Source of the DNA: a virus
IMG/VR virus record: IMGVR_UViG_3300037087_000181
Location: 1-64,000 of that record
Direction: 5' to 3' (one strand)
Length of the DNA stretch: 64,000 bases
Shown: one piece after another, positions 8,062 through 26,445 of the stretch
How positions within the stretch are numbered: position 1 is the first letter of the stretch
Layout: every line of letters starts with the position of its first letter
Program-made: the position numbers and the translations under genes
Notes under the pieces: model-generated
What the model saw: only the letters and a program-made list of their open reading frames with translations
What the model was told of the DNA's origin: nothing
Databases searched by the model: none

Positions 8062-8892
8062 TTATGTGTAATAAACATCTTTTAAACTATCCGAGAAAAA
8101 CATTGCGGCAGATGATACCCCGCATTGTTTACAGATAAGATAATCACACTTACTAAGGAGTAATGCTTGTATAAGACATTCCTCACCAAGTAGTTGTCTA
8201 TGGTTTGGCCTTCTGTCTGCAATGATGGCCCAGAGATTATACTTATTCATATACTCAAGTGTCTCGTCTGTGCGCCTGAATACGTTCTTTAGATAGAATA
8301 TGTTGTTGAACCACGTGTCAAACGATGGTAAGTAATGACTATCCTCCGTTACCACAAATATCTTGTCAATTTCTTTGTTGTCGTATAATACTTCTTTTGT
8401 CTTGCGTAACCAATCGTCCAATTGCTGATTGCCATATTCAGGATGTCCTGCATTAAGCTCACAACCCCTTGCCATAACACCAAGAACCGTCCTACCTTTA
8501 AACTCTTTTTCGTATATTTCGTCTACCTTATCAAGTATATGTTGTTTGATCTTTACGTGGTTTTTAAATACATCCCTGAACTCCGGCACGTCTGCCCTTT
8601 TCCATATCTTAGTGTGGTGCATGAATATTAGATGATCAAGTTCTACTTTAGCTACATTGTCATCTTTTGCTATCGGACGTTGATCGAACCACCAGTCCCA
8701 TGGGTTTTCTGCGTTACGGGGTGCTCTTGCATCCGTGAATGGATTATACCTATTAGCCCATGCGGTATGAGTGCAGTCAACGTAGGGTTCTAATCCTTGT
8801 TCCGTCGCCACCTTAATGTGGTCAAGAATACGAAAAAAGTTACTGAAGAACCCATAACCATAACTCGGTAGTCTTATGTAACCTCTGTTCAT
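8062..8892 (-). CDS. NodZ/GT23-like fucosyltransferase
   Basis: GFFSNF, LGVMARG, IFVVTED, ALLLSKCDYLI motifs. Confidence 0.75.
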   Translation of the reverse strand: MNRGYIRLPSYGYGFFSNFFRILDHIKVATEQGLEPYVDCTHTAWANRYNPFTDARAPRNAENPWDWWFDQRPIAKDDNVAKVELDHLIFMHHTKIWKRADVPEFRDVFKNHVKIKQHILDKVDEIYEKEFKGRTVLGVMARGCELNAGHPEYGNQQLDDWLRKTKEVLYDNKEIDKIFVVTEDSHYLPSFDTWFNNIFYLKNVFRRTDETLEYMNKYNLWAIIADRRPNHRQLLGEECLIQALLLSKCDYLICKQCGVSSAAMFFSDSLKDVYYT

Positions 8893-9689
8893 AATAGTTT
8901 AAGTATTGTTTCCTTTAGCAAGTTTTCCCAGTTAACATATTGCAATGCTCTTTGAAAATTTTCTTCGATTGCGATAGTGTATGCAAAATATGAGTTGGGG
9001 GTGCTTTGATTACACCATTTTATTACTTCATCAACCGTATCTGCAATACAAATTCCATTTGCGTTAAAATATCTATCAATATTAGGACAGCCAATATAGA
9101 CCGGAATCGTTCTTGTTAAAAAGCAATCGAGTATCTTCTCGGAAAAGTAGTTTGGAATGCTTGTGTTTTCTATGCAGACGTGGAACATACAATCGAACAT
9201 ATCATTTTTTGAGTATCTTTCATCACCCAAGATTAGTTCATGGCTTATATCGACTCCCGTGGGTCTATACGTATGACTTAAATAGAAGTCTTTAGGTATT
9301 GCTATTTCTTCTCTGCGTCTCCAGAGTTCATGTCGCTTGGTATATCCTTCAAAAACAAGATTATTTTTTGCACCCACCACCGTAGATACCGCAAATTTCT
9401 TCTCATAAGGTTTGTCGTATGTCACCCATGCGTATATTCCACGAAAGAATACAGCCTTCGGATTAATGTTAAGAACGTCCTGCAAAAAAGTAAATACATA
9501 AGTATAACACTCAGGATGATCTCTTACATCATCATAGATACAACAGATAGGTTCATCCATAACAACTATACGAATCGTATTATCAGGAACCCGACTAAAA
9601 TCAAACTTATCTATAAGTATCTCTATCCTTTTGTCGGATTCAATCTCAATCGGAAATCCCCACGGTGCTTCGTTGCGTACTACTGGCAT
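8889..9689 (-). CDS. GT10 alpha-1,3-fucosyltransferase-like
   Basis: FHVCIENTSIPNYFSEKILDCFLTRTIPVYIG signature. Confidence 0.85.
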   Translation of the reverse strand: MPVVRNEAPWGFPIEIESDKRIEILIDKFDFSRVPDNTIRIVVMDEPICCIYDDVRDHPECYTYVFTFLQDVLNINPKAVFFRGIYAWVTYDKPYEKKFAVSTVVGAKNNLVFEGYTKRHELWRRREEIAIPKDFYLSHTYRPTGVDISHELILGDERYSKNDMFDCMFHVCIENTSIPNYFSEKILDCFLTRTIPVYIGCPNIDRYFNANGICIADTVDEVIKWCNQSTPNSYFAYTIAIEENFQRALQYVNWENLLKETILKLL

Positions 9690-9691
9690 AA

Positions 9692-10297
9692 TTATTTTGT
9701 ATAAACAAATAAAAGATCATCATAACTATTATCCCAAATAACCGCACTATTGTGATCAAACTTGGTTAGGTTATCAAGTAGACTATACCCGGCATCGGTA
9801 AAGATACCCATGATAGTATCCTTAAATTTATTGGCTACCTCAATAACTACATAAGTTGGATGATAAAACTTCAAATCAAAACCCTGCAATACCTCAAGTT
9901 CATATCCCTCAACATCTAAACTTAACAAATCAATCGTTGTGATGTTATGTTGTTTTAAAATAGAATTAAGAGTTCTTCCTGTAACTGTGGTGTATGGGGG
10001 TCTATTGAGCATAACACCACCGACCGAAGCCATAGGAGACCCATCAAAGTCGCCACTTATCTCCTTTATGTCATCCGATACGACCAAAGCACAGTGCATA
10101 AAAATATTTTCAATTGATCTATTATCCATTAGCGTGGGGAAAATATACTCTGATGGCTCTATTAATAACCCCTTCCACCCTATTTTTTCAAGTTCATAGG
10201 TATAACTAAACGAGATACCATCATTAGCACCAGCTTCTATATAAAAGCCATTAGATTCTTTGACGTGATTAAGTAGGGTTTTAATGTAATATTCCAT
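9692..10297 (-). CDS. FkbM-family methyltransferase
   Basis: YIEAGANDG, GWKGLLIEP, IDLLSLDVEGYELEVLQG. Confidence 0.9.
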   Translation of the reverse strand: MEYYIKTLLNHVKESNGFYIEAGANDGISFSYTYELEKIGWKGLLIEPSEYIFPTLMDNRSIENIFMHCALVVSDDIKEISGDFDGSPMASVGGVMLNRPPYTTVTGRTLNSILKQHNITTIDLLSLDVEGYELEVLQGFDLKFYHPTYVVIEVANKFKDTIMGIFTDAGYSLLDNLTKFDHNSAVIWDNSYDDLLFVYTK

Positions 10298-10987
10298 CTA
10301 TTGGGTTTTAACTGCTAATACCCAAGTAATAACAGGACAGTCTATTTCGTTCTTTCCGGGGTTATGACTATAAGTATAGTCCGGCCAAAGACTCTCGTAG
10401 GATTTCATAAGGTATTCTCTGTTGCCCCATTGACCAATCTTTAGAATGTCAAATCCCGCCAAAGTAACCATACAACCAAGTCCAACAGGAGTGATCCCCG
10501 TATAAAAATGATAAGGAGTACTATGTGGTATGTTGTTTGTGGGTACATTTGCGTAGAACATTCCACCTATCTTAAGATGATTATAAATGTTTTTAAGACA
10601 AAGGATTGGGTCATATAGATGTTCTATTATCTGATTACACATAGCAAAATCGTAGTCTTTCTTCGGGAGGCTTAGGGTATGTAAGTCATAACCTTCTGTG
10701 ACACCATATTCAAGATTAGTTACCTCATCTGGCCAAAGAAATTCCATTTCTGGATCGTCTTTTCCATCAAGAGTTAATATTTTATTAATATTTCTGACGT
10801 TTATGTGGGGGAGATAATTTTCAAACTCTAATAAAGCAATAACCCTCGGAAAGTCCTTGTTTTCCCATTTCCAAACCATGCCGTTAAGTTCAAAAGGCAT
10901 CGACACATACCTATTCCAGTACTCCTTTGTGTAATTGATTGCCACATGCTTCTCATAAATATCGTATATCTGCTCTTTACTTAGCAT
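10298..10987 (-). CDS. class I SAM-dependent methyltransferase
   Basis: YDFAMCNQIIEHLYDP...LKIGG...VP. Confidence 0.8.
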   Translation of the reverse strand: MLSKEQIYDIYEKHVAINYTKEYWNRYVSMPFELNGMVWKWENKDFPRVIALLEFENYLPHINVRNINKILTLDGKDDPEMEFLWPDEVTNLEYGVTEGYDLHTLSLPKKDYDFAMCNQIIEHLYDPILCLKNIYNHLKIGGMFYANVPTNNIPHSTPYHFYTGITPVGLGCMVTLAGFDILKIGQWGNREYLMKSYESLWPDYTYSHNPGKNEIDCPVITWVLAVKTQ

Positions 10988-11867
10988 AACTCAGTATTTT
11001 ATCTTTCCAATATTGAAAATTAAGTTGGCTCATATTAGGCTCAACCTCATTAAATTGATCAAGAGTCCTTGCGAGGATTTCAACAGTGACGTCACTCCAT
11101 TGCTTTGGTAAATAAATAGGTAGGTCGCTCCAGAAGCGATTATTATTATTGCCTAACTCTATCGGCACTGACCCCAAATAAAGTGTTTCCCATGTCCTGT
11201 GCGTGTCCATACCATTACCCTCTGGACAAAGAACAAACTTATGGTTGTAGATATTATCAATATAGCTATCAAAGTCACTTCCGTTGGCTTTCATATCTAC
11301 CGTAACCCACGGAAAATCTTTAAAATAGTCGTAACATTCTTGTCTTTTTTTAAGGTTTGTGTTGATATTAAAGTTCATATAGACAAGATTCTTCCATTGG
11401 TGGGGTTCTTTCAATTTCTCTTTGATTTTCTTCTTTTTGTTTATCTCAGGAAACCACATATCGTTCTCTAAACCGATGGGGATTGCTGAAATCCGCTTAT
11501 GAAAGCAATTGATGTTCTTTGAAAACCAATGAATGACGTTATCCGGTAAACTAAACCAATCCACATTCTGCCCAAACCCGTCAAATGTGCTAAAAAATCC
11601 ATCACCCATACTTGTACTTGTTTCATTAATCAAATTGTCAGAGTTATGAGTTATTATAACAAACTGATACCGTTCCAACTGACGCAAAAGTCCAAACAAA
11701 CTCCCTGCATACATCGTATGTGTATATACAATGTAGATACTTTTTTCACGCAAGAATAATGGTCTGAATGTATTTGCAAGATTATCGTAATCTCCCGGTA
11801 GTTTTTTTTCTGGGGAGAAAGTAAAATCCGCAAGTTCTTTAAATTTATCTCCAGTTATGACGTCCAT
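10977..11867 (-). CDS. exostosin/GT47-like glycosyltransferase
   Basis: IITHNSD, IPIGL, KFVLCPEGNGMDTHRTWETLYLGSVPI. Confidence 0.8.
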   Translation of the reverse strand: MDVITGDKFKELADFTFSPEKKLPGDYDNLANTFRPLFLREKSIYIVYTHTMYAGSLFGLLRQLERYQFVIITHNSDNLINETSTSMGDGFFSTFDGFGQNVDWFSLPDNVIHWFSKNINCFHKRISAIPIGLENDMWFPEINKKKKIKEKLKEPHQWKNLVYMNFNINTNLKKRQECYDYFKDFPWVTVDMKANGSDFDSYIDNIYNHKFVLCPEGNGMDTHRTWETLYLGSVPIELGNNNNRFWSDLPIYLPKQWSDVTVEILARTLDQFNEVEPNMSQLNFQYWKDKILSYAK

Positions 11868-12601
11868 AAATAAATTGCATTATGTGGTGCGGTAAGTGGA
11901 ACTTCGGGGACAAAAAACCCATCCTTCTTTAAAACCCAAATTTCCTTTGATGTCATTGCACGCTCCTTAATCCGTTGATCTAAGTAATTACAGGTCATAT
12001 ATCCTTTGGCGGAATGTTCAATGATATTTTTTGCATAGAAATTTTGATCCTGACGGCTTATCTCCGTGAAACAGTAGTTTGATATGCACAAATCATAGTC
12101 TCGATGTAAAAGGCTTCTATGACTCCGTAGGACTATGTTTTCTATGCCATGACAAATAAGGTATTTCTTTGCGAGGGCCAATACCTCTGGTAAATCAATT
12201 AAAGTGTAACTCTTTGGAACGAAATAATCATTGATGATTTTACATTGCCCACCATAGCCTATACCTATCTCTACTATATCCAAATCATCCAAAGAGCCAA
12301 AATGAGTCACTAAGTCTGCAAGAACCTTGACATAACGTAATGTGGATGGTGAAATTTCCATGTTAAGTTCATCATACCAAAACATTTGTGGTGTTCCGAG
12401 ACTGTCGTTAGTCGCAAAACACTCAATATGCTTCAGCAGTTTCGGTTGTAGTCGTTTAATCTCGCTAAGATACCCCAACCCCTGCTCATACGTCACATGT
12501 TCGAGCATATAGGTACAGGCAGTATTACCCTTGAAGGTTTTGAAGACTTCTTCGTCTTTTACCGCTTGTAGGCAAAGGTCGGTGTATTTATCATAAATCA
12601 T
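11855..12601 (-). CDS. putative sugar O-methyltransferase
   Basis: VEIGIGYGG, YTLIDLPEVL, DLCISNYCFTE. Confidence 0.8.
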   Translation of the reverse strand: MIYDKYTDLCLQAVKDEEVFKTFKGNTACTYMLEHVTYEQGLGYLSEIKRLQPKLLKHIECFATNDSLGTPQMFWYDELNMEISPSTLRYVKVLADLVTHFGSLDDLDIVEIGIGYGGQCKIINDYFVPKSYTLIDLPEVLALAKKYLICHGIENIVLRSHRSLLHRDYDLCISNYCFTEISRQDQNFYAKNIIEHSAKGYMTCNYLDQRIKERAMTSKEIWVLKKDGFFVPEVPLTAPHNAIYLWTS

Positions 12602-12648
12602 GATTCAAATATATAACTTAATTATTTAATTTCCAAATATTTTGTTAT

Positions 12649-13143
12649 TTATTTTTCGTCAGGGAAATTTAAGTTGGCAAATTCACCAAATAATTCTTTG
12701 GCTTTCTTATCATAGGAACGAGCAGCATCTTCGGCAGTATAATAGACACCCAAACAAATTTCTTTATAGTTAACATGGATTCTGGCACGAAACTTCTTTG
12801 TCCTTCTCTCCCCCTGTTTAAGACTAACACCATTATAAGGGATTTCTCCTCTAATTGCAGAATTCTTGTGATTATCTGTTTCTGTACAGTTCCTTAGATT
12901 TGATTTTTGATTATTCAATCCATTATGATCAATATGGTCAACTTCAAGTTCAGGAGGCGTGTGCATTATTTCTCTGTGCATATTAATCATTTTCCTACTT
13001 CTGTTTTCAGAAATAGTGCCCCATCTTTGAGCATAATAATGACCATTGTTACCATGAGCGAACCATTTCCATTTGCTTAACCAAACAAAGTCATCATCGT
13101 CTACCAATGCAACTTGCCCCCTTGTTAATTGAATCTCTTTCAT
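12649..13143 (-). CDS. HNH endonuclease with AP2 domain
   Basis: VDHIDHNGLNNQKSNLR; LGVYYTAEDAARSYD..LFGEFANLNF; start re-called at MKEIQLT. Confidence 0.9.
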   Translation of the reverse strand: MKEIQLTRGQVALVDDDDFVWLSKWKWFAHGNNGHYYAQRWGTISENRSRKMINMHREIMHTPPELEVDHIDHNGLNNQKSNLRNCTETDNHKNSAIRGEIPYNGVSLKQGERRTKKFRARIHVNYKEICLGVYYTAEDAARSYDKKAKELFGEFANLNFPDEK

Positions 13144-13244
13144 CTTGTGTCGTTTTTTGATATGTGTCGAAAAAAATGGAGGAAAGGACTCGACACTCGT
13201 CTGCTTCATCGGGTAGCTATATCCGACTATTCCTCCACAAAGAT
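13144..13244 (-). promoter_or_regulatory. TATCTTTG promoter plus structured 5' leader of HNH-AP2 gene
   Basis: Three-stem junction; loop GTGTCGA complementary to two downstream CGACAC boxes. Confidence 0.6.
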
Positions 13245-13251
13245 AGTAAAT

Positions 13252-13986
13252 TTATTTATTATCTTGCCAGCTAACTGTCCAGTAGTGAATGCCATAACTA
13301 CACTCTTTAATGTACCTTTTAGGATTAGAGATAGCACGCTGAGTATTGGGAAGACAATAAAAAAAGTCAAAAGGAAAGACAACCACTCCCGATGTGTCAG
13401 TATCTATCGTTTTTAAAAAACATTTCGTAAAATGATAGGGGCCTGATCCATGCATAATTTCCATTGCATCATGCCCACGATAGGGTGTATCAAGATCGTC
13501 TATACATGTCTGAATAATAGGATGATTGGGGATGCTTGCAATGATGCCTATATAAAGAACGAATACGTCTCCATATCCAAGACCACAGAAGAACTTAAGA
13601 TTAAGGAGATCATCAAGTGGTCTTATACATTCAAAATCAACATCGATATATACTCCGCCATACTGTTTAAGTATTTCATATCTTAACAAATCACTTTTCA
13701 TTCCTTGGTTGGGACACGCCTCCAAAATACTTCTTTTGGTAATGAAAATATCATTGACATCTTTATCTGTCCAAAGTTTATATTTGTAGTCAGGATTATA
13801 AAACTTCCATGATTGCATGAATTTTTCATATTTTTCAGGCACGTTGCCCCCTAACCAAATTTGGTGTATGATCTTCGGAATATGTTGTTCTGTATCGGTA
13901 GCCTCGGTATAGTTCAAAGCAAACAAATCACTTACTATCTTCCATGTAGGACTATTATCTTCTTCTATCAAGTATTTCATAATCAA
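13252..13986 (-). CDS. GT32 (DXD, OCH1-like) glycosyltransferase
   Basis: IPKIIHQIWLG, KSDLLRYEILKQYGGVYIDVD. Confidence 0.9.
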   Translation of the reverse strand: MIMKYLIEEDNSPTWKIVSDLFALNYTEATDTEQHIPKIIHQIWLGGNVPEKYEKFMQSWKFYNPDYKYKLWTDKDVNDIFITKRSILEACPNQGMKSDLLRYEILKQYGGVYIDVDFECIRPLDDLLNLKFFCGLGYGDVFVLYIGIIASIPNHPIIQTCIDDLDTPYRGHDAMEIMHGSGPYHFTKCFLKTIDTDTSGVVVFPFDFFYCLPNTQRAISNPKRYIKECSYGIHYWTVSWQDNK

Positions 13987-14423
13987 ATATTTTTATTTCT
14001 CCCATCAAAGACCACAATCATACTATCGTGCATAGGACTTTTATTGGTAACAAAATTACCCCAAGAATCATATCCCTTAAACTTAATTCGCCCTTTCCAA
14101 AAACGAATTGGTTCTGTAATGTTTTGCAAAATTACATCATGGAATAATCGAGTGCTTGTGGATACAGGAAGCAATAACACACAAAGTTTTCCCTTATTCT
14201 TTTCTTCCACGGCTTTCAAAACAAACTTCTTTTTTAAATCAACACTATATGGAGGATTTACAAAATTACTTGTCCCCCATTCTACCTCAAGTCCATTCCA
14301 TTTAGAAACATCATGTTCAATAGGACAGGGATCAAAATCAAAATGAAATCGTTCATTAAGTTCATCATAAACATACAAGGGTGTTGCCCAATTATCACTA
14401 TGTGGTAAATTTCTATTTTTCAT
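13983..14423 (-). CDS. phage DNA N6-adenine methyltransferase
   Basis: WATP, FDFDPC, FVNPPYS, LLLPVSTST, GRIKF. Confidence 0.9.
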   Translation of the reverse strand: MKNRNLPHSDNWATPLYVYDELNERFHFDFDPCPIEHDVSKWNGLEVEWGTSNFVNPPYSVDLKKKFVLKAVEEKNKGKLCVLLLPVSTSTRLFHDVILQNITEPIRFWKGRIKFKGYDSWGNFVTNKSPMHDSMIVVFDGRNKNI

Positions 14424-14601
14424 CTAAAAACCTTTCATTATGCCAACCATCGTCAGCGTAGTTACGAGAATATTTTTGTTGCAATGTAACCCACTCCATC
14501 CATCTCATTTCGGAGAGGGTACAGATAGGGAATAGGGCAAACCTTCTGATGGTTCTTATTTCTCCGTCTTGCGGGTTTTCAAAGAAAACGTGGTATTTCA
14601 T
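14413..14601 (-). CDS. hypothetical protein
   Basis: ORF overlapping both neighbours. Confidence 0.65.
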   Translation of the reverse strand: MKYHVFFENPQDGEIRTIRRFALFPICTLSEMRWMEWVTLQQKYSRNYADDGWHNERFLDEK

Positions 14602-15170
14602 TTTGTAAACTTATTATAACTCTCAATAATATAGTCGTAAAACTTCATCTCTTGTCCGCTTACGTCTGAATAACCATCACTCTGCGTGGCACAGATAGGG
14701 TTCGTAATGAAACAATTAAACTCTTTTTGAACATGCAGGAAATAGAATATGTCAAGGTTAATTCCTGATGGCACGTTAAGGTTAAGTATATAGTCAACCA
14801 TTCTCTTTGAATAATAAATAATTGCATGTGTTGTGTATGCTCTCTTTAACCGGAATAAATACTCGGAATATTTCTCAAGTGGTTGCGTGAGTGTTGCGCC
14901 AAGCCAAAGGGCATCTGCATCATCAGGTAACTCCGCCATTGCTCTTTGAACAACCATCCAGTTTTCTAACATTACACAATCATCTTCGCAAATTAGAACA
15001 GGAAATTCTGTTATTTGAGATAAAAGAGTTCGTGTAGATAACGTAAAACCATCCTGCCCTGATTCCATTTTAAAAGCACTAAATCTTTCTACCTCAAAAG
15101 GAAACTCATTCTTTTTGAACTGCTCCATTCTGTCGGTTCTTTCATCCAAATTTATGACTATTGCTTTCAA
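14598..15170 (-). CDS. GT25-like glycosyltransferase
   Basis: INLDERTDR, RFSA, LICEDD, THAIIY. Confidence 0.85.
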   Translation of the reverse strand: MKAIVINLDERTDRMEQFKKNEFPFEVERFSAFKMESGQDGFTLSTRTLLSQITEFPVLICEDDCVMLENWMVVQRAMAELPDDADALWLGATLTQPLEKYSEYLFRLKRAYTTHAIIYYSKRMVDYILNLNVPSGINLDIFYFLHVQKEFNCFITNPICATQSDGYSDVSGQEMKFYDYIIESYNKFTK

Positions 15171-16498
15171 GTTTGTTTAAATTTAAGTGGTATTTCTTGA
15201 TGACAACTTGTATTATTAATCCCTATAAAATTACTTAATTCGATAACCTGTCCGTTTAAAAATCTTTCATTTAAAAATTCAGCATCTATCTTCCCATGAA
15301 CGTTATTCCAATCGTTTTGGACAATATTAATAGGATTATTGATTATCATAGATTTATCGTAACATATCATCTTTGGAGGGAATCCCTTTGTATTTTTTGC
15401 CATGCTTGATTCGAGTGTATTTGGACTTGTGTAATCCAGTTTTATTAAGAAAGAGAGTATCTCTTTGGTGCGAAAGATATGCCCATCGAGGCTCATGGGA
15501 TAGCCGTAGTCACCATCCTGTCCCTTCCAATTGAATGTATTATCCCCGAAGAAGGGTGGCTGTTTCATTGGTGTCTGTTTAGAATAGCAATATGTTAATG
15601 ATTTGTTAAGTCTTAGACTCCGGCAAATGATACTATCATCCCATTCAAAAGCGTCCATCTGTTTGTCATAGAAGTCAAAATTATTAATGAATACATCATC
15701 ATCTGTGAAGAATACGGTGTGTGGGTAATTTTCCCCGATAAGACAAATTAAATCAGATCTAAAGTCTGTTTCTTTATGAAAGATTACATTGGGAGGAATT
15801 GTTTCGCATAATTTGACATATCCTTGCATAAATTCATCTAAGGAATAGGCATAGAGGATATTAATGACATATTGATCAGCATTTTTTACAAAAACATTAA
15901 AACTTCTGATAAATAGTTCCAGTTGCATAGCTCTATCCTTACTAAAAACAACGATATTAATGGGCTTAACCTTTTTTATCTCTGCTACAAGTATATCACC
16001 TGCAATATGTCCGTCCGCAAAAGAGAAAATATAATCAGGACTAATCTCTAAAATCTTATTTTTAATATCTTCAACATTAAAGCCTATTGCAGGAAAATCC
16101 CTGCTCCACTCTCTTAAATCATCAATGATAATAGTGTGTGTTTTGATAAAATGACTCTTGATTATTCCGAGTTCTTTCATTAGCGGGGTCAGATTGTTAG
16201 TAAAATCCGTGTCCCCACCAGAGTAATGAGCATCTAACCAAAAAGTAGCAGGTTCATTCAGTTTTTTAAGAACATTCGGTAGTTCGACAAGACTATCCCC
16301 ATGTAGTAAGTTGACGTTGTCATTATATTTGAAATAACTCTTGCAATAATTGTAGTGTTTTTCTGCAAGTTCAATCGAGTAAATGATTTTATACCCAGCG
16401 AAGATAGCGTTTTTAATACCTTCTCCTGCATAACTACCTGTCTCTATGAATATGGGATTATAGTTATGTCTTCTGAATAATTGAATATTACTCGGCAT
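15167..16498 (-). CDS. methyltransferase-like domain fused to GT-A glycosyltransferase
   Basis: FIETGSYAG..FWLDAH..IIIDD; then IVVFSKDRAMQL..FFTDDD; start re-called at MPSNIQ. Confidence 0.75.
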   Translation of the reverse strand: MPSNIQLFRRHNYNPIFIETGSYAGEGIKNAIFAGYKIIYSIELAEKHYNYCKSYFKYNDNVNLLHGDSLVELPNVLKKLNEPATFWLDAHYSGGDTDFTNNLTPLMKELGIIKSHFIKTHTIIIDDLREWSRDFPAIGFNVEDIKNKILEISPDYIFSFADGHIAGDILVAEIKKVKPINIVVFSKDRAMQLELFIRSFNVFVKNADQYVINILYAYSLDEFMQGYVKLCETIPPNVIFHKETDFRSDLICLIGENYPHTVFFTDDDVFINNFDFYDKQMDAFEWDDSIICRSLRLNKSLTYCYSKQTPMKQPPFFGDNTFNWKGQDGDYGYPMSLDGHIFRTKEILSFLIKLDYTSPNTLESSMAKNTKGFPPKMICYDKSMIINNPINIVQNDWNNVHGKIDAEFLNERFLNGQVIELSNFIGINNTSCHQEIPLKFKQT

Positions 16499-17088
16499 TA
16501 GATACAATATTTTTGATAATTTTTCAAAATAGTTGCACAATCACTTCTTTTTGAGACATTTGATGCTGATTGTTTTTGTGTCACGAGCATTGGATAAACA
16601 CAAAATATATTGAATTTCGGTTGGATGACCTCGTAAAGATACCTATCAATCTTACCTATGTCGGTTTTATGCGTCATTATGTATTGAAGTGCACTACCAG
16701 AATGGTTATGCCAGAATATCGAATGGGTGGTCTTGGCGTTTCTCAACCTAAAAAGGTTATTAGAATAGCGTTCCTGCGGTTCTTGCGGACTTGCTCCAAG
16801 ATACAGGGCATCCCAATCTGTTGGTAATTGGCTAAAAGCTACCCTCATAACAATATCAGTGTTTAACTTTGGGTGCAAAAACTCGGCATCGTCTTCAAGT
16901 ATAATAAAGACATTCTCTTTTTTACACTTCTCCATTATCGAAAGGTGTGACTTTGTGCACCCGATATAACCTACAGGATCAATAATGGCAGAAAAAAGAT
17001 GAGCGTTCATGCCCTGATTTTCTAATTCAATTCTGACGTCATGGAGGCGGTCGGGTCTATCTGATCTGTTGATTAAATAAGTTTCCAT
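16498..17088 (-). CDS. GT25-like glycosyltransferase
   Basis: LINRSDRPDR, GCTKSH, ILEDD, DWDALYLG. Confidence 0.85.
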   Translation of the reverse strand: METYLINRSDRPDRLHDVRIELENQGMNAHLFSAIIDPVGYIGCTKSHLSIMEKCKKENVFIILEDDAEFLHPKLNTDIVMRVAFSQLPTDWDALYLGASPQEPQERYSNNLFRLRNAKTTHSIFWHNHSGSALQYIMTHKTDIGKIDRYLYEVIQPKFNIFCVYPMLVTQKQSASNVSKRSDCATILKNYQKYCI

Positions 17089-17092
17089 AGGA

Positions 17093-17155
17093 CAAATGTA
17101 AAACTTATAAACGAGACTTCCAAATAATTAGAAAGAAAAATTTCAACTATCTTTG
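17093..17155. promoter_or_regulatory. divergent promoters (glycan operon on minus, groES on plus)
   Basis: TTTG-N20-TACATTTG on minus (17093-17124); TATCTTTG on plus (17148-17155). Confidence 0.7.
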
Positions 17156-19813: not shown

Positions 19814-19849
19814 ACCTCAAAAAATGGGGTTCATAGTAATACAAAAAGT

Positions 19850-19876: not shown

Positions 19877-20034
19877 AATAAACATTTTTGCTTCGACTAT
19901 CGTGTGTCTTGTCATCGCTTTTCTCGATGATCTCACGAGTTCTGATAACTAACACCAAAAAAGGCTACCAAAAGTCTATGAATAATGTATGGTTCCTTCG
20001 CCCGTTTGCTGGCTCACTTAAGCAAACATTAAAA

Positions 20035-20244: not shown

Positions 20245-20376
20245 GGTATATGTAGCGTTTAAAATATTTACTTTAGCGGGCTTTAACGGCGATGACCGTC
20301 TCTACGATTTCCTTATCCCGTGCCCGCTTTTAGTCCGATTCCTAACTGTAAGGGTCTGTATATCGGCAACCGAATG

Positions 20377-20447
20377 TAGCAAGAGACAGAATTGAACTGT
20401 CGACTAAGGCTTATGGGGCCTTCGAGATACCACTTCTCCATCTTGCA
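20377..20447 (-). tRNA. tRNA-Met(CAT)
   Basis: Cloverleaf TGCAAGA / GAGA-AGTGGTA-TCTC / AAGGC-CCCATAA-GCCTT / GACAG-TTCAATT-CTGTC / TCTTGCT-A. Confidence 0.85.
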
Positions 20448-20564
20448 ATATTTTTGTTTCAATAAACTTCAAGATCCCCTCACCCAATTGAGAAAAATCA
20501 AACTATGAAAACTTAAAATCACCCTGAACGATGAGGGGGCAAAATTTAATCCATAATGTAAACA

Positions 20565-20638
20565 CAAAGATAATTGAAATAAAATTAAGAAGCAAATGTT
20601 TTAATATTTGTTTTTATCAAAAACTTGTTCTATATTTG
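20565..20638. promoter_or_regulatory. divergent consensus promoters (tRNA unit / replication unit)
   Basis: TTTG-N20-TAnnTTTG on both strands (20565-20596 minus; 20607-20638 plus). Confidence 0.75.
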
Positions 20639-20817
20639 TCGTTTCAAAAACGAAGTCAAAAATTTTACTTACCTTTGACCTGTTGTAGTAATTATACAGA
20701 ATGAAAACAACAAACATAAAAAATTAACAATAAACTGAGGCCCCCTCGGTGAACTCTCCTTTTCTGGATAGTTACTACGACACTGGGGGGCAACCTCTTT
20801 CATAATATCGTAGTGTT

Positions 20818-21123
20818 ATGGGAAAAGACCCCGCATTCTTATTTTACACTGCCGACTTTAATGAGGGCACACAAGATTTCACTAACGAAGAGGTAGGTGC
20901 ATATCTTCGTTTACTACTATTTCAATTCTCACGAGGGCATTTACCTTTAGATAGTATACAAAGGAGATTAGGCTCTGATTTTGAAAGACTCTGGTCGGTT
21001 TTATCAATGAAGTTTATTGAGGATTCTAATGGTAATTTTTATAACGAAAGACTCCAAACCGAACAGATAAAAAGATCGAGTTATTGTGACTCAAGGAAAA
21101 CAAATAAACTACGAAAAATCTAA
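20818..21123 (+). CDS. YdaU/DUF1376-like replication initiator N-terminal domain
   Basis: MGKDPAFLFYTADF...EEVGAYLRLL...FYNERL. Confidence 0.8.
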   Translation: MGKDPAFLFYTADFNEGTQDFTNEEVGAYLRLLLFQFSRGHLPLDSIQRRLGSDFERLWSVLSMKFIEDSNGNFYNERLQTEQIKRSSYCDSRKTNKLRKI

Positions 21124-21126
21124 TAT

Positions 21127-21260
21127 CATATGTTAAACATATGTTTTTCTTATGTTCATCATATGATCGGCGTATGGAAAATGAAAATAGAATTGTAGAT
21201 AAAGAAGAGGTTAATAGTAATATATATTATAAGCGAAAATTTAAATTTGAAAATAAATTT
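21127..21260. other. putative replication origin (iterons plus AT-rich tract)
   Basis: CNTATG at 21127, 21138, 21149, 21160, 21171 (exact 11-bp phase). Confidence 0.6.
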
Positions 21261-21430
21261 GGAAATCTCAATTATAAGTTATACTTTTGGTGTATTAAAT
21301 TAAAAACAAGAAACCATGAATGCAATACCAATTTACACTCCAACATTCCTTTATTGGAAATTTAAGCCACTTACTACATTTCTTATTGGTCTTGTACTCG
21401 GATTAGTCATTATGTATTTAATAAAATAAC

Positions 21431-21901
21431 ATGGTCGAAAATCTTCAAACAATAAAAGGAACGCTGTATTCAAAAGATACACGCAAGGTTGATAATAAAA
21501 AAGACCCAACGCAACCACCCTATGAATTTATGTCTATAAAAGTAGAATATAAACTCGACTTTGGAGGAAAAGACAGAACCAATATTGCAGAGATGCAGTT
21601 AGACAGAGGGGTGGGCTTTGAGGAATTTAGTATTGGCGATAGTATCGGCGTTGATTATTATCTCTTTGGAAAAAAGATTTCAGATACTTGGTTTAAAACA
21701 GAAGCAAGGGTAGTTCACATAGGATTTACCGACAGAAATAGTACCTACGATAATCACAAGGGTAAGATAAAGGTTGATGCAATGAGCAATATAGATACCA
21801 TTGCAGAACCACCTAAACATATTGAACAAAGAGAAAAGGTGTTTGTTAATCTTTCTCCAAATGAATATGATGATGAAAACGGTGACCCATTGCCTTTTTA
21901 A
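21431..21901 (+). CDS. single-stranded DNA-binding protein (DUF3127-like)
   Basis: OB-fold-like; acidic tail DDENGDPLPF. Confidence 0.75.
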   Translation: MVENLQTIKGTLYSKDTRKVDNKKDPTQPPYEFMSIKVEYKLDFGGKDRTNIAEMQLDRGVGFEEFSIGDSIGVDYYLFGKKISDTWFKTEARVVHIGFTDRNSTYDNHKGKIKVDAMSNIDTIAEPPKHIEQREKVFVNLSPNEYDDENGDPLPF

Positions 21902-21910
21902 TTACATAAA

Positions 21911-22195
21911 ATGAAAAAGAAAGTATTAACAACCGATGATCTTTATAATGGTTGGCTTGTTAAATACCACGGCATAACAGTACAAGAACTTCTTGAAAAA
22001 GAACCGGAGTTATGCAAGACCTCCGAATGGTATAAGAAATATGCAGTTACTACCGAACAATATGACGAATGGTACAAATGGGCAATCAAAGAGATACAAA
22101 AGTTCTATCATTGTTCCAAGAAGACCGCAATAAGAAATTTTGCTTTTGATTATTTAAATGTTTCACCGAGTATAAAAGATGAACCAGACAATTAA
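21911..22195 (+). CDS. hypothetical phage protein
   Basis: ORF. Confidence 0.7.
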   Translation: MKKKVLTTDDLYNGWLVKYHGITVQELLEKEPELCKTSEWYKKYAVTTEQYDEWYKWAIKEIQKFYHCSKKTAIRNFAFDYLNVSPSIKDEPDN

Positions 22196-22853
22196 TGTGG
22201 GGATAGCAAGTTTACCCGAAAGAAGTGGAAGCCTGCAAAAGGTTTTAGACTCACTTACCAATCAGGCAGACAATATTTATGTTATTTTAAACTATGGTTT
22301 GCAAGAAGCACCGCAGTGGATCAATGATTTTAAAAATGTGTATTGGACTATTAGCGGTAATGAGTTTGGAGCCAACGCAAAATTCACCATGTCTGACAAG
22401 GTAAAAGGGTATTTTTTTAGCTGTGATGATGATTTATTATATCCTAATAATTATGTATCTCTTACAAAAAACATGATTGATTTTTATCATTGTATAATAA
22501 CCTATCATGGAAAACGGTATGACGGGGAAAGGCCAATATCATCTTATAAAAGATCATTTACTACCAATATACGATGCTTAAATTCATGGTATAAAAACAC
22601 TGAAGTTCATGTTGGAGGTACTGGGTGCATGGGTTTTCATACAGACGACTACAAACCATCCTATGATGTACAGGCACAAAAAAACATGGCAGATATATTT
22701 TTGGCACAGGACGCACACATGAAAGGAGTAAAGATAATGGCACTTGCACATGGCAGGGATTTTTTAAGGTATTTGCCGCCTAATGATAAAACAGTTTGGC
22801 AAACATCTTCGGATATAGTACAAACTGAAATACTAAATTCTTTTTTGAAATGA
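22179..22853 (+). CDS. GT-A (GT2-like) glycosyltransferase
   Basis: VGIASLPER, SCDDDLLYP, VGGTG, MADI. Confidence 0.85.
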   Translation: MNQTINVGIASLPERSGSLQKVLDSLTNQADNIYVILNYGLQEAPQWINDFKNVYWTISGNEFGANAKFTMSDKVKGYFFSCDDDLLYPNNYVSLTKNMIDFYHCIITYHGKRYDGERPISSYKRSFTTNIRCLNSWYKNTEVHVGGTGCMGFHTDDYKPSYDVQAQKNMADIFLAQDAHMKGVKIMALAHGRDFLRYLPPNDKTVWQTSSDIVQTEILNSFLK

Positions 22854-23539
22854 AGTTTGGAATTTTAACAATAAGTTTTAAAAGAATTAAAATATTACGT
22901 CTTTTTTTAGCTTCCATAAAAAGATTAAGAAGCGATTGTGGTTATTTTCCCTGCGTGGTGGTTGGTGATGAAGAACACAAGCAACTCTGTGAGCAATACG
23001 AAGTCCATCATATCACACAAACCAATCATCCAGCCACGGCAAAGTTCAACACAGGAGTAGACTATCTTATGAGTATACAATGTAGATACATAATTGTTGC
23101 GGGATCAGATGATATTATTTCCACAACGCTACTAAAAAGGTGCATTACAGAAATGGAATTGGATTACGATCTTGTAGGAATTTCGTCTATATATTTCTAT
23201 GCGGCTGATGGTCAACATAAAGGAAGTCTACGTCACCTAAAAACTAAAGATCAAATTTTGGGCGTGTGTAGGTGTATCAATCGAAGGATCATTGAAAAGG
23301 TTGGTGGAGTACTTTGGAACAAAGAAAGTTCATGGGGCATGGACGGCATAGCACTAAGGAATATTCAACCCCATGTAAAGACATGGAAGATAGTTGAAGG
23401 GGATTGTTTTGATGTTAAGACCAAAGAAAATCTTAATAAGATAACTTTCTGGTTAAGCAAACTTCAAAGCCAAGAAAACCCAGAAAAGTTCTACTCAATA
23501 CTTTCAAAGGAAGAAAAGCAAATACTAAATGAAATATAA
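22850..23539 (+). CDS. GT-A glycosyltransferase
   Basis: AKFNTGV, AGSDDII, LGVCR. Confidence 0.75.
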   Translation: MKFGILTISFKRIKILRLFLASIKRLRSDCGYFPCVVVGDEEHKQLCEQYEVHHITQTNHPATAKFNTGVDYLMSIQCRYIIVAGSDDIISTTLLKRCITEMELDYDLVGISSIYFYAADGQHKGSLRHLKTKDQILGVCRCINRRIIEKVGGVLWNKESSWGMDGIALRNIQPHVKTWKIVEGDCFDVKTKENLNKITFWLSKLQSQENPEKFYSILSKEEKQILNEI

Positions 23540-24099
23540 TGAGACAACAAATCTTACTTGACATGGATGGTGTGCTTGTAGACTTCCTTTCGGGGGCATT
23601 AGAAGCACTTAATAGAGACTTTAACAAGCATATTACCATCGAACAATACGCTTCCGAGTTCGGACAGTGGGGAACTTATGATTACTATGGGATAACCGTA
23701 GAGCAATTCTGGAACTCTATTCACGAGACTCCTGATTTCTGGTATAACCTCAAGCCGATGCCGTGGTATAAGGAACTTTATGCCTTACTGTCGGAAATAG
23801 GAGAAGTAACCATACTTACGACCCCATCGCTCGATCCGTCTTGCGCAATGCAGAAACTTCAATGGCTCGATAATTACATGAACATTAAGTCAGATGCAGT
23901 CTTTCTTGGTTCACGCAAATATCTCATGGCAGGCAATGGAATCCTTATAGACGACTATCAGAAGAACGTAGAAAAATTTAAGTCATCAAGAGGCGATGCT
24001 ATTCTTATTCCATCTAACTGGAACACCAACGGACTCACGTTTAAGAGAATTAAGAGTACAATTGATCCATTTTTTGCAGGAGTAATTTTACCAAGATAA
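23539..24099 (+). CDS. HAD 5'(3')-deoxyribonucleotidase
   Basis: LDMDGVLVDF, KLQWL, ILIDD. Confidence 0.9.
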   Translation: MRQQILLDMDGVLVDFLSGALEALNRDFNKHITIEQYASEFGQWGTYDYYGITVEQFWNSIHETPDFWYNLKPMPWYKELYALLSEIGEVTILTTPSLDPSCAMQKLQWLDNYMNIKSDAVFLGSRKYLMAGNGILIDDYQKNVEKFKSSRGDAILIPSNWNTNGLTFKRIKSTIDPFFAGVILPR

Positions 24100-24101
24100 A
24101 A

Positions 24102-24434
24102 ATGTCAGAAAATAAAGGATTACGGTATAACACAGGTAAGCGGAAATGGTCTTTAGTCCATTTCAAGTCATTAGAGCCGATGATTGAAGTCATGGAGTTC
24201 GGTGCAAAGAAATATGCCGTTGATAATTGGAAACAGGGATTCGACAAGAAAGAGATTCTTGAGTCCCTACAAAGGCATCTTGCAAAACTCTTTGACGGAG
24301 AAGATATAGATCAAGAAAGCGGATTGCATCATATTGGGCATATAATGTGCAATGCAATGTTTTACAGTTTTTACATGAATAAGGAGAAGGAAAGTAATGA
24401 CACCAAAAACCGAAATATACCAAGTTCGATTTAA
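24102..24434 (+). CDS. dATP/dGTP diphosphohydrolase (DUF5664)
   Basis: FGAKKYAVDNWKQG, SLQRHL, DQESGLHHIGHIMCNAMF. Confidence 0.9.
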   Translation: MSENKGLRYNTGKRKWSLVHFKSLEPMIEVMEFGAKKYAVDNWKQGFDKKEILESLQRHLAKLFDGEDIDQESGLHHIGHIMCNAMFYSFYMNKEKESNDTKNRNIPSSI

Positions 24435-24669
24435 CAAGTACACCACGGGTAATGGAGACGTTGCATTTTCCTCCTATACCTTAGATAGTCCATATCTTGT
24501 TGGCATGGCAAAAATAAACCCCATAAAGATTGTATTAATCAAAGATAGGGTACACGTTACCTTTGAAGATGGAGGAAAACATGTATTCGGTTATGGGGCA
24601 GACACGGAATTACTCTATCGCCCGGTAGAGCAAAAGACAGAAGAAACTAAAACAGACACAACAGAATAA
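24397..24669 (+). CDS. hypothetical protein
   Basis: ORF. Confidence 0.65.
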   Translation: MTPKTEIYQVRFNKYTTGNGDVAFSSYTLDSPYLVGMAKINPIKIVLIKDRVHVTFEDGGKHVFGYGADTELLYRPVEQKTEETKTDTTE

Positions 24670-24673
24670 ACTA

Positions 24674-25441
24674 ATGGCTGAACTACTCAAACAGACGGTA
24701 AGTAAAAGGGAACTGGACGAAGGAATCATACCTATCAACATGGTTCTTTGCGAGCAATACTACAGCAATGAAGGACTCACCACAAAGTCAGGTATCATAA
24801 TAGGAGTTAATAAAGAGCTGATTTATGCTGATCCCGATAATCTCGATGATGACTCTACACATGCGGCTGATCTCGCAGAGGTGTCAATGATCGTTTACAA
24901 AACCCCGCAAAAGCTATACTTTAATACTGAAGATAGGGAAAAGAGTATGCCGTGGTTGACCGACATGGCATTAGAAAAAGGATGGGAAATATGGACAAAT
25001 ACCATTGACAGCCTTAACGCAGTTACGCTTGTGTGTGATGGCAAAACCTATAAACTTATTTCATATTCAGATATTTATTGTGCAAGATACCGTATAACAC
25101 TTACTAAAATCATGTTTGCAATCAAAGTTAGAATGCTAAATGGCTACGTTCTTGTCACCCTAAAAAACAAAGAATCTCTTTCCGGGTTTGACGTAATATC
25201 AGAAGAGTGCTTAGATAAAACGAAAGGTGTAATCTCGTATATTGGAAACCCAGTCAAAGAATATCTAAATCCTGATTATAGCCATATAGAAGACCTTCGT
25301 ACAGGAGATACTGTATTATTCAACCCTAAGGCTGGAATTTGGGCTTTGGAAAGGCAAAAGTATGCCAGCCGTTTTGACGACAAACAAATTTACTACGTGG
25401 TACATAGAAAGGATATTAATGCAGTCCTTTCAAGAAAATGA
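24674..25441 (+). CDS. tandem GroES-like domain protein
   Basis: TTKSGIIIG; MLNGYVLV...KGVISYIG...LRTGDTVLF. Confidence 0.65.
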   Translation: MAELLKQTVSKRELDEGIIPINMVLCEQYYSNEGLTTKSGIIIGVNKELIYADPDNLDDDSTHAADLAEVSMIVYKTPQKLYFNTEDREKSMPWLTDMALEKGWEIWTNTIDSLNAVTLVCDGKTYKLISYSDIYCARYRITLTKIMFAIKVRMLNGYVLVTLKNKESLSGFDVISEECLDKTKGVISYIGNPVKEYLNPDYSHIEDLRTGDTVLFNPKAGIWALERQKYASRFDDKQIYYVVHRKDINAVLSRK

Positions 25442-26445
25442 CCATCTCCGTCTGCATACCCGTTCGCAATGAAGACCCCGAACTCTTAATTGAAGTTTTG
25501 TATAATTTTACACGTGATTATCCTTATGATGAACTTGAGATAGTCTTTTATAACGATGGTAGCGTTAACACAGATGGGTCATTTGCGTCACTCCATAACA
25601 TAAATTTTCCGCAAAGGATAAAAAACTACCTAAAAATTATAGAAAGCAAAGAACAGTACGGAGTGGGATATGGCATGGATCGTTGCGTAGAAGCGTCCAG
25701 AGGCACGATCGTTGTTTTAGCAGGCGCCGATACATTTCCGCAGAGATCGTGGTTCTATGACGTTAAATTGCTTGTAAAAGACAATCAAATCGGTTGCTGT
25801 GCAAGTGTGGGGCTTAATTTAGGCAATTATGATATTGATGCACCCGATAGAACTACAAGATATGGGGCAAAATTACTTTATAAAGTGACAGTAGACGATT
25901 TGCCCATAGAGTCTAAGTTAAGAAGTAATCTTGAATATAGGGATATACTTGAAGGCAAATGGGCATCAAAGAAATCAGACGAACCTTATGAGATAAGTTG
26001 TTTAATGGGGGCGTTTTATTTTATGAAGCGTGAGTTCTACGAAAAAACATACGGTTGGGACACTATCGAAGGGCAACGATTAATAGGCCACCAAGGCTGG
26101 GGAAAGTTGGAAAGTTATTTAAGTTTAAAGGCACGTGTCTACGGAGGAAAATGTATAGTTTATCCTAATATCAGGGTAGGGCATGTGTTTGCCAAATTCA
26201 ATGAGGACGAGCCGCCAAGAGCCATAAGAGACGATCTAAAATGGTTCAATGGACTATTTATGGCACATACTATGCTCGAAGAATCTTTCAGAGACGAGTT
26301 AATAAACTTTCCCCACCATAGTCTTAATTTAAGCACAGCACAGGCTTACATAAGGCGCAATTGGAGCAAGGTACAGGAAGTCAGAGATCGAAATGAAAGA
26401 GAAGGTAAATTACTCTCTAGAAATGATGTGGAAAATAATGTGTAA
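25438..26445 (+). CDS. polypeptide GalNAc-transferase-like (GT27/GT2) glycosyltransferase
   Basis: SVCIPVRNE, NDGS, LMGAFYFMKREFY, GWGKLESYLSLKARVYGG, RVGHVF. Confidence 0.75.
   Translation: MTISVCIPVRNEDPELLIEVLYNFTRDYPYDELEIVFYNDGSVNTDGSFASLHNINFPQRIKNYLKIIESKEQYGVGYGMDRCVEASRGTIVVLAGADTFPQRSWFYDVKLLVKDNQIGCCASVGLNLGNYDIDAPDRTTRYGAKLLYKVTVDDLPIESKLRSNLEYRDILEGKWASKKSDEPYEISCLMGAFYFMKREFYEKTYGWDTIEGQRLIGHQGWGKLESYLSLKARVYGGKCIVYPNIRVGHVFAKFNEDEPPRAIRDDLKWFNGLFMAHTMLEESFRDELINFPHHSLNLSTAQAYIRRNWSKVQEVRDRNEREGKLLSRNDVENNV

Follow-up and report, generated by a model that had tools for sequence, protein, structure and literature searches.

The 64,000-nucleotide stretch analysed here, in the following called the window, comprises bases 1-64000 of virus record IMGVR_UViG_3300037087_000181, the complete sequence of which has 85,256 bp (CheckV: complete) and stems from an uncultured peat phage with a Bacteroidota-type host. 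It features a minus-strand operon of 12 genes at 8062-17088 and a plus-strand block at 22179-26445, which together encode about 14 catalytic domains for glycan work. We read these genes as a soluble, cytoplasmic glycan assembly line that is predicted to act on proteins, most likely on the head or virion proteins of the phage itself, and give this reading a probability of roughly one half. Glycosylation of virion proteins had already been proposed in an earlier note on this DNA. One element of that proposal, a protein as the target, is now favoured because one of the enzymes exhibits a GT27-like fold, another is a relative of a GT114 enzyme acting on a viral capsid glycan, homologous cassettes are placed among head and packaging genes elsewhere and the known routes to a DNA base that could be glycosylated are missing; the other element, the virion, is less certain.

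The operon genes in the direction of transcription, followed by the glycosyltransferase genes of the plus-strand block, are:

16498..17088, minus strand: GT25-like glycosyltransferase no. 1, first operon gene, EDD motif (Pfam PF01755, 35.8 bits; cut-off 24)
15167..16498, minus strand: fusion of an O-methyltransferase and a GT-A glycosyltransferase, 443 amino acids from the ATG (AlphaFold2 model, predicted local distance difference test (pLDDT) 90.4)
14598..15170, minus strand: GT25-like glycosyltransferase no. 2 (weak Pfam GT25 match; phrog_24091)
13983..14423, minus strand: Dam-type DNA N6-adenine methyltransferase (Pfam PF05869, 56.2 bits)
13252..13986, minus strand: GT32-type glycosyltransferase, DVD motif (Pfam Gly_transf_sug 56.6 bits, Caps_synth 39.8 bits)
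12649..13209, minus strand: HNH endonuclease (Pfam HNH_3, 23.5 bits, slightly under the cut-off)
11855..12601, minus strand: protein of 248 amino acids resembling class I S-adenosylmethionine (SAM)-dependent methyltransferases (profile A3 against protein-isoaspartate O-methyltransferase (PIMT), E 4.4e-5)
10977..11867, minus strand: GT114 glycosyltransferase, homologue of A075L of PBCV-1 (Paramecium bursaria chlorella virus 1) (phmmer E 5e-33 to PDB 8q8i/8avq/8asa, residues 82-295)
10298..10987, minus strand: class I SAM-dependent methyltransferase (Pfam Methyltransf_23 27.3 bits, cut-off 27; Methyltransf_11 25.7 bits, cut-off 21.2)
9692..10297, minus strand: FkbM-family methyltransferase (Pfam PF05050, 69.8 bits; phrog_8156 methyltransferase)
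8889..9689, minus strand: GT10-like, alpha1,3/4-fucosyltransferase-like protein (Pfam GT10, 20.4 against 23.9 bits, below threshold)
8062..8892, minus strand: NodZ/FUT8/GT11-like protein, last operon gene (Pfam NodZ, 22 bits, below the cut-off of 28.3)
22179..22853, plus strand: probable GT-A glycosyltransferase, the weakest call (motif FFSCDDDLLYP, no true Pfam match)
22850..23539, plus strand: probable GT2-like glycosyltransferase, weak (Pfam PF00535, 19.4 bits; cut-off 23.3)
25438..26445, plus strand: GT27-like catalytic domain, candidate priming enzyme (Pfam GT2, 41.9 bits; AlphaFold2 pLDDT 92.8)

In total, 8 firm and 2 weak glycosyltransferases, 4 methyltransferase domains not directed at DNA and 1 DNA methylase are counted, which agrees with the about ten glycosyltransferases and four sugar-type methyltransferase domains given in the earlier note. 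The tight minus-strand operon described there was also recovered, with intergenic gaps of -4, 2, 0, -11, -13, 47, 42, -4, 174, -4 and -1 bases, so that most genes overlap or abut, the junctions away from the two inserted genes ranging from -4 to +2 bases; its gene list was incomplete, as the genes for the Dam DNA methylase (13983-14423) and the HNH endonuclease (12649-13209) had been left out. Of the three GT-A genes that had been placed at 22.2-26.4 kb, 25438-26445 is solid and the other two are weak, and this block encodes not only glycosyltransferases but also an NT5C deoxynucleotidase, a MazZ-like diphosphohydrolase and a GroES-like protein. No signal peptide and no clear membrane helix is seen in any of the glycosyltransferases and methyltransferases, in line with the soluble nature ascribed to them before. 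Inspection of the sequences revealed a DXD-type or equivalent motif in all glycosyltransferases; the degenerate catalytic motifs that the earlier note had named as refuting evidence are not what is found. Comparison of the cluster with the PHROG families yielded few matches.

The enzyme encoded at 25438-26445, immediately upstream of terL, points at a protein acceptor. Characterised GT27 enzymes start O-glycans on Ser/Thr residues of proteins, and the model of the phage enzyme superposes with their whole catalytic domain (GalNAc-T1 8v9q, T2 2ffu/4d0t, T10 2d7i, Toxoplasma T3 8uhv; Z score 27, 284 residues, root-mean-square deviation 2.9, 12-17% identity). Z scores amount to 27.0 and 26.7 for GalNAc-T1 and TgGalNAc-T3 over ~280 residues and to 17.9 for the next GT-A enzyme, and all listed top Foldseek matches are polypeptide N-acetylgalactosaminyltransferases (ppGalNAc-Ts). 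The Gal/GalNAc-T motif is retained in part, with E225, S229 and K231 aligning to E, S and K of WGGEQYEISFK and WGG being lost. The C-terminal metal-binding His is represented by the invariant H249, as VGHIY stands opposite vgHvF in the profile alignment to GalNAc-T10. Unlike GT27 enzymes, the phage protein features G-A-D in place of the DxH motif and has neither a ricin-type lectin domain nor a membrane anchor, and it is cytoplasmic. Judging from the model it is GT27-like by fold, and because of the replaced DxH motif and the missing lectin domain we do not file it as a member of GT27. Its 55 homologues all reside on contigs of at most 85 kb, i.e. of phage size.

The protein encoded at 10977-11867 is, by its sequence, a clear homologue of A075L and thus of GT114, which replaces the label 'GT47-like' of the earlier note; a profile search against A075L lowers the E value from 5e-33 to 5e-54. 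A075L is the founding member of CAZy family GT114 and a metal-independent beta-xylosyltransferase that transfers xylose to O4 of fucose (PMC11571054). It acts on the N-glycan of the chlorovirus capsid protein and so contributes to building the capsid glycan of PBCV-1 (PMC11571054, PMC9614988). The donor-binding residues Asn148, Arg158 and Arg208 of A075L align to N165, R175 and R224 of the phage protein (chain numbering offset +2), all of which are invariant in three phage homologues. The sequence HNSD (residues 74-77; H74, N75 and D77 invariant in alignment A4) lies opposite Asp73 of A075L by eye, the HMMER alignment starting just after it, and probably holds the catalytic Asp. Homologues of the GT114 enzyme are present on at least 144 IMG/VR contigs, from phages as well as giant viruses. 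Among the best 80 GT114 loci, which are viral, a GT11 or GT10-like homologue is found within 10 kb in 46 and capsid or connector genes of the type present in contig L007 in 36; both counts are descriptive and without a control.

Fucose as a constituent of the glycan is suggested by the two last genes of the operon. The assignment of the first of these to GT10 withstood scrutiny although the single sequence remains below the Pfam threshold: a profile from six sequences (A1) matches the Helicobacter pylori alpha1,3-fucosyltransferase 2nzw with an E value of 1.5e-12 and FUT9 with 7e-5, the match falling into the C-terminal, GDP-fucose-binding domain of GT10 and the alignment to the H. pylori enzyme covering profile positions 139-227 only, and an ENS...Y..EK-type motif (CIENTSIPNYFSEK) is visible in the protein. 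For the protein encoded at 8062-8892, the former designation as NodZ/GT23-like finds support in its Atlas neighbours, which are NodZ-, FUT8- and GT11-like; the Pfam NodZ match is sub-threshold. Its Atlas neighbours are mostly viral, NodZ, FUT8 or O-FucT being assigned to 10-19% of the members of the nearest clusters, and its structural neighbours in the Atlas include a cluster named GT11 (TM-score 0.82). As the GT23/NodZ cut-off is not reached, we file it, on its sequence, as fucosyltransferase-superfamily-like. Taken with the fucose-accepting relative of the GT114 enzyme and the four methyltransferase domains, the description of the glycan as branched, fucosylated and O-methylated appears reasonable as an inference at the family level.

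The fusion protein encoded by the second operon gene gave no Pfam match, and a PDB search with the single sequence was of no use. In the model, residues 1-177 adopt the fold of a cation-dependent O-methyltransferase (Z score 15.1 to 4oa5), and residues 178-434 that of a GT-A enzyme with a DDD motif (Z scores 13.3 and 13.0 to POMGnT1 and GnT-I). The same two-domain architecture occurs in a giant-virus (Solumvirus) protein (E 4e-22), and none of the 488 homologues of the C-terminal domain has a Pfam match. The two GT25-like proteins are paralogues (33% identity, E 2e-22); no. 1 matches phrog_24091 and also the glucosyltransferase family phrog_2835. The 248-residue protein contains the glycine-rich SAM motif VEIGIGYGG and matches neither Pfam nor PHROG families; its family accompanies the cassette in contigs L022, L008, L136 and L137. 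Regarding the weakly assigned protein encoded at 22179-22853, the nearest clusters in the Atlas consist of viral proteins, with PF00535 in 11-13% of the members.

The gene set is not unique to the window. Co-occurrence across related phages was among the checks named in the earlier note, and the families do recur together: O-methyltransferase domain, GT25, GT32, GT114, GT10-like and 248-residue proteins are jointly encoded on many uncultured viral contigs. In L137, a closer relative with a 54% identical fusion protein, the genes for a GroES-like protein, the GT27-like enzyme, GT25, the fusion, GT25, GT32 and the 248-residue methyltransferase follow each other in this order on one strand, with a gap of ~1 kb behind the GT27-like gene. 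A GT27-like homologue leads the cassette not only in L137 but also in L008. In the more distant L002, L003 and L005 (TerL ~31% identical), the cassette leads directly into terL and the portal gene and additionally encodes a GT11 fucosyltransferase, an FkbM methyltransferase and a sugar dehydratase. Since the cassette stands ahead of terL and the portal gene in these relatives, the comparison indicates that its normal place in the lineage is the block preceding the packaging genes. The window phage deviates in that the main part is inverted at 8-17 kb, with a promoter of its own that resembles that of the plus-strand glycosyltransferase block, so that only three glycosyltransferase genes precede terL while the main cluster occupies the other strand. 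Contigs L007, L022 and L006 represent HK97-type phages with capsid proteins 56-64% identical to each other and unrelated to the window phage. Even there, homologous genes are inserted between the gene for the capsid protein and those for the head-tail connectors, forming an island with GT32, GT25, GT114, O-methyltransferase domain and FkbM genes and, in addition, genes for GT11, an epimerase, GT2 and a sulfotransferase-like protein. Taken together, the cassette is located inside the head or packaging operon in L137, L005, L002 and the L007 lineage. The first gene after that for the capsid protein in this last lineage, L007:7865-8560 with its L022 and L006 homologues, is the best-conserved one of the island and shows a weak match to MptE-like/Maf-type proteins (PF01973, E 1.7e-5); it may encode a protein-directed priming enzyme in the HK97-type phages, and the window phage has no homologue.

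Two proteins encoded in the head region are candidate acceptors:

34455..35600, plus strand: head-module protein of 381 amino acids with a Thr/Pro-rich N-terminal tract (residues ~16-56), candidate acceptor (from sequence)
32678..32986, plus strand: small protein, C-terminal half rich in Ser/Thr/Pro/Gln, second candidate acceptor (from sequence)

The tract of the larger protein includes GTPPATETLTPSTETSTPT, and the gene of this protein adjoins that of the probable capsid protein. Across ~60 homologues (38-83% identical), the tract varies in sequence yet retains its composition. Such features suggest a role of both proteins as acceptors. From all this we infer a pathway, including its acceptor, sugars, order of steps and timing, along the following lines. 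The lineage-specific GT27-like enzyme would prime Ser/Thr residues in disordered Thr/Pro-rich tracts, the candidates being the N-terminus of the 381-residue head-module protein and the C-terminus of the smaller one encoded at 32678-32986. The pair of GT25 enzymes, the GT32 enzyme, the GT-A domain of the fusion and the two small GT-A proteins would extend the chain, whereupon the GT10-like and NodZ/GT11-like enzymes could add fucose from host GDP-fucose. Like its chlorovirus homologue, the GT114 enzyme might then place a pentose such as xylose on fucose, and the four methyltransferase domains would O-methylate sugar hydroxyls, with all nucleotide sugars and SAM being supplied by the host. In its most specific version, a temperate Bacteroidota phage would perform mucin-type O-glycosylation in the cytoplasm on Thr/Pro tracts of head-associated proteins and decorate them with a chlorovirus-like, fucose- and xylose-containing, multiply O-methylated glycan; we propose this version tentatively and regard it as somewhat improbable in its full detail.

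The closest parallel is provided by PBCV-1, where the glycan of the capsid protein Vp54 is made by A075L (GT114), A064R (a GT-GT-methyltransferase), the A061L methyltransferase and A111/114R (PMC9614988, PMC11571054). Both viruses encode soluble cytoplasmic glycosyltransferases and sugar O-methyltransferases, and the phage possesses a direct homologue of A075L with conserved donor-binding residues next to fucosyltransferase-like enzymes, as well as a methyltransferase-glycosyltransferase fusion. In contrast to PBCV-1, the host is a bacterium, the fusion has another domain order and consists of other families, and the likely priming by a GT27-like enzyme would imply an O-linkage whereas the chlorovirus glycan is Asn-linked. 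Among tailed phages, virion O-glycosylation has been described for mycobacteriophages Che8, Corndog and Myrna, as far as can be taken from the account of Freeman 2023 given in PMC12619734. The Corndog genes for gp35-38, annotated as encoding hypothetical proteins, lie between the portal and protease genes (record AY129335) and hence within the head operon, just as the homologous cassettes of the window phage's relatives. The window phage differs from Corndog by a far larger number of enzymes (~14 catalytic domains), by a main cluster outside the late operon and by structural proteins that lack C-terminal Gly-x-Ser tails. Literature searches did not bring up any work on tailed phages with GT27-like or GT114 enzymes, or on glycosylated virions of crAss-related or Bacteroidota phages. 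What distinguishes the present case is the small genome, the link to A075L and the split and partly inverted layout.

Several observations weigh against a glycan on virion proteins. In the GT27-like enzyme, the Mn-binding DxH motif (DSH in GalNAc-T10) is replaced by G-A-D with the invariant D98 at the position of the His, and the protein of 335 amino acids, the model of which aligns to residues 116-420 of GalNAc-T1 only, does not contain the ricin-type lectin domain. Not a single homologue of it is found in 50,697 phage records, no isolate bears a close one, and the GT114 homologues in the phage collection stem from uncultured records only, with no cultured phage carrying close ones. BLAST of Corndog gp35-38 against the window phage yielded no match. 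In Corndog, where capsid and tail-tube proteins bear such ends, gp41 and gp49 finish with VGS and GDS, respectively; C-terminal Gly-x-Ser tails of this type were considered as acceptor sites and discarded, as none of the structural proteins encoded here and no L007-type capsid protein ends in this way. The 381-residue candidate acceptor looks scaffold-like and may be absent from the mature virion, the protein encoded at 35631-37100 is a probable capsid protein by size and position, and neither of the two matches a Pfam, PHROG, PDB or phage-record entry. Thr/Pro-rich linkers commonly exist without glycosylation. Finally, the 12-gene cluster resides outside the late operon, on the opposite strand and under a host-type promoter of its own, and the phage encodes a tyrosine integrase that would fit lysogenic conversion.

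These last points lead to remodelling of the host envelope, an explanation that we rate as unlikely yet in need of serious consideration. The soluble enzymes would act at the cytoplasmic face of the membrane on undecaprenyl-linked intermediates of the lipopolysaccharide (LPS) O-antigen, the capsule or the general protein O-glycan of Bacteroidota, with flipping and ligation being performed by the host, and the altered, methylated and fucosylated surface would block superinfection or adsorption of progeny in infected or lysogenic cells. The integrase (Phage_integrase, 57.6 bits) is encoded at genome position 78656-79567, at the end of a plus-strand block, and the phage is therefore probably temperate, a trait shared with the phages that carry seroconversion modules (GtrABC, Wzy, Oac). 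The explanation can further draw on the separation of the operon, with its own Bacteroidota-type promoter, from the late genes, on depolymerase-like beta-helix proteins that suggest a polysaccharide receptor, on signal- or lipobox-like N-termini of several phage proteins, and on contigs from a peat RNA library matching the operon. It can also draw on cyanobacterial chromosomes, in which stand-alone homologues of the GT-A domain adjoin a homologue of the class I methyltransferase encoded at 10298-10987. Arguing against it, the membrane components of the seroconversion modules are missing: the complete genome encodes no GtrA/GtrB-type, Wzx/Wzy, Bac_transf or multi-pass membrane protein, its proteins contain at most three hydrophobic segments each, the glycosyltransferases none, and the only match of the seroconversion type is a weak PHROG GtrB-like one (E 6.5e-4) in a soluble N-terminal part. 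Nucleotide-sugar genes are also missing from the complete genome, and what had been noted earlier for the window, that flippase, polymerase, nucleotide-sugar and hydroxymethylase genes are absent, thus holds for all 85,256 bp. Phages known to seroconvert their hosts make do with one to three genes, compared with fourteen catalytic domains here. That the cassette turns up again in head operons of unrelated lineages is hard to square with host-specific glycan chemistry, its conserved first enzyme is of the GT27 type, which is directed at proteins, and for the two proteins tested (NodZ-like and 22179) the nearest Atlas clusters are mainly viral. The host surface, which the earlier note had given as an alternative, has thus become less favoured but is kept in play by the opposite strand, the host-type promoter and the integrase.

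Modification of DNA was the other alternative named before, and we regard it, from the gene content, as highly improbable. The purpose would be to evade restriction, by means of an oligosaccharide that the enzymes assemble on a modified base in phage DNA. A Dam methylase in the operon and the NT5C and MazZ-like enzymes between the plus-strand glycosyltransferase genes may be put forward for it. So may the finding that mono- to trisaccharides can be attached to 5-hydroxymethylcytosine (5hmC) by phage enzymes of the GT-A and GT-B type that have relatives among LPS enzymes (bioRxiv 10.1101/2023.12.21.572611). Known routes to the bases concerned (5hmC, 5-hydroxymethyluracil (5hmU) and 5-hydroxycytosine (5hoC)) proceed via a homologue of thymidylate synthase or via a dioxygenase of the 5mYOX/TET kind, the dioxygenase route to 5hmC requiring a C5 methylase in addition (bioRxiv 10.1101/2023.12.21.572611; PMC13326640). 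A six-frame hidden Markov model search of the complete genome gave no match to Thymidylat_synt, Tet_JBP or C5 methylase at E <= 1 and revealed no PurZ, while control genomes exceeded the cut-offs for Thymidylat_synt and C5 methylase (DNA_methylase) and responded for PurZ, and those for Tet_JBP gave sub-threshold matches only. All these routes are accordingly missing, relatives of the GT27-like and GT114 enzymes use protein or glycan acceptors, and Dam and HNH are insertions that syntenic cassettes do not have.

A third explanation moves the glycosylation away from the virion, the acceptors being host cytoplasmic proteins, exported lipoproteins or beta-helix proteins of the phage, a small molecule or a lipid. 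Exported-looking phage proteins are indeed encoded, the structural operon is separate from the main cluster, and the GT27-like fold indicates a protein at most and not which one. Host-takeover glycosyltransferases known so far add single sugars, which does not resemble a multi-sugar, multiply methylated glycan, and the placement of the cassette in head modules elsewhere points at structural proteins; in our opinion this possibility is quite unlikely.

To our knowledge, a few giant viruses and mycobacteriophages are the only ones for which virus-made glycans on virions have been proven. If glycosylation of virion proteins by this class of cassette applies, particle glycosylation would be widespread in environmental phages, considering the at least 144 IMG/VR contigs with GT114, and would have consequences for adsorption, stability, grazing, immune recognition and the modelling of phage surfaces. 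Tailed phages and giant viruses would then share one horizontally exchanged toolkit for particle coating, and GT27 and GT114, so far characterised in eukaryotes and eukaryotic viruses only, would have a place in phages of bacteria. A candidate priming enzyme, a candidate Thr/Pro acceptor tract and a predicted chemistry with fucose, xylose and O-methyl groups form a concrete, testable set, and the small soluble enzymes could easily be expressed for glyco-engineering.

Expression signals in the window are of the Bacteroidota type. The motif TTTG-N17-22-TAnnTTTG occurs 20 times compared with 4 expected, and none of 100 shuffled sequences reaches 20; the sigma-70 consensus was tried and abandoned in its favour, as it was found 50 times with 52.9 expected from shuffles. 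Copies relevant here are:

17093..17124, minus strand: Bacteroidota-type promoter motif directly upstream of the first start codon of the operon
12606-12637, minus strand: promoter motif after the HNH insertion
7999-8030, minus strand: promoter motif after the operon
21258..21289, plus strand: promoter motif ahead of the plus-strand block, sequence close to the 17093 copy
34103-34134, plus strand: closely similar promoter motif before the head-protein genes

The copies at 17093, 21258 and 34103 share the sequence TTTGGAA.TCTC..TTATAAGTT.TAC.TTTG. The motif copies suggest one promoter class for the glycan operon, the plus-strand glycosyltransferase block and the head-protein genes. Six contigs in a small RNA library from peat match the window with 99% identity or more, and four of them fall into the minus-strand operon; these are assembled contigs for which carry-over of DNA and selection bias are possible. 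DNA of the glycan cluster is present in many peat metagenomes, while a near-identity DNA search with the cluster against the 50,697 phage records gave no match.

Within the operon, the genes for Dam and HNH are read as insertions outside the glycan pathway because the syntenic cassettes of L137 and L022 have neither of them at the corresponding positions. The genes for the NT5C deoxynucleotidase and the MazZ-like dATP/dGTP diphosphohydrolase are situated between the glycosyltransferase genes at 23539-24434. With its L005 homologue the MazZ-like protein shares 82% identity, TerL being only 31% identical, and its gene is not considered part of a Z-base system because PurZ is not encoded in the genome. 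They are followed by one further gene of the block:

24674..25441, plus strand: protein with a GroES-like C-terminal domain (Pfam Cpn10, 28.4 bits)

Homologues of this gene adjoin the cassette or the GT27-like gene in L137 and L005, and by analogy the protein may act as a co-chaperonin in capsid folding, like T4 gp31. In peat metagenome X11, one contig joins position 23349 to 25034 (shorter side 44 bases) and thereby skips 1684 bases, i.e. the end of the GT2-like gene, the NT5C and MazZ-like genes and the start of the GroES-like gene; this single contig suggests a strain variant of the plus-strand block. Directly before terL, at 26491-27543, two paralogous genes encode proteins of 181 and 167 amino acids (29% identical, E 1e-13). 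Considered as conserved acceptors, they were dismissed, since they have neither a family match nor homologues in contigs with a 75% identical TerL.

TerL and the portal protein match crAss-related PHROG families and share ~24% identity with those of Flavobacterium 'elemo' and Cellulophaga phages. Besides the integrase, the genome outside the window encodes beta-helix proteins, a CHAP lysin and a GIY-YIG endonuclease; no Pfam match to DNA polymerase, primase or helicase was obtained among the open reading frames scanned. Signal-peptide- or lipobox-like N-termini (e.g. IMKKILTILIALAIALVSC) are present on a Fib_succ_major protein and on two beta-helix proteins (together window 51593-55192, genome 71082-73325 and 77941-78651), which would be odd for virion parts assembled in the cytoplasm, and going by these N-termini the proteins may be exported. 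Both ends of the record (window 1-594, genome 84218-85256) lie in a tandem repeat of 12 nucleotides (AATGTTAGCCCC and variants). An NVSP-like, sequon-rich protein was considered for this terminal repeat and rejected, as it reads as (x-A-N-I)n of a minus-strand gene. This four-residue repeat connects an N-terminal domain (594 to 1) with a C-terminal DUF6745 domain; its length has probably collapsed in assembly, and the record was linearised inside it, which split a single gene.

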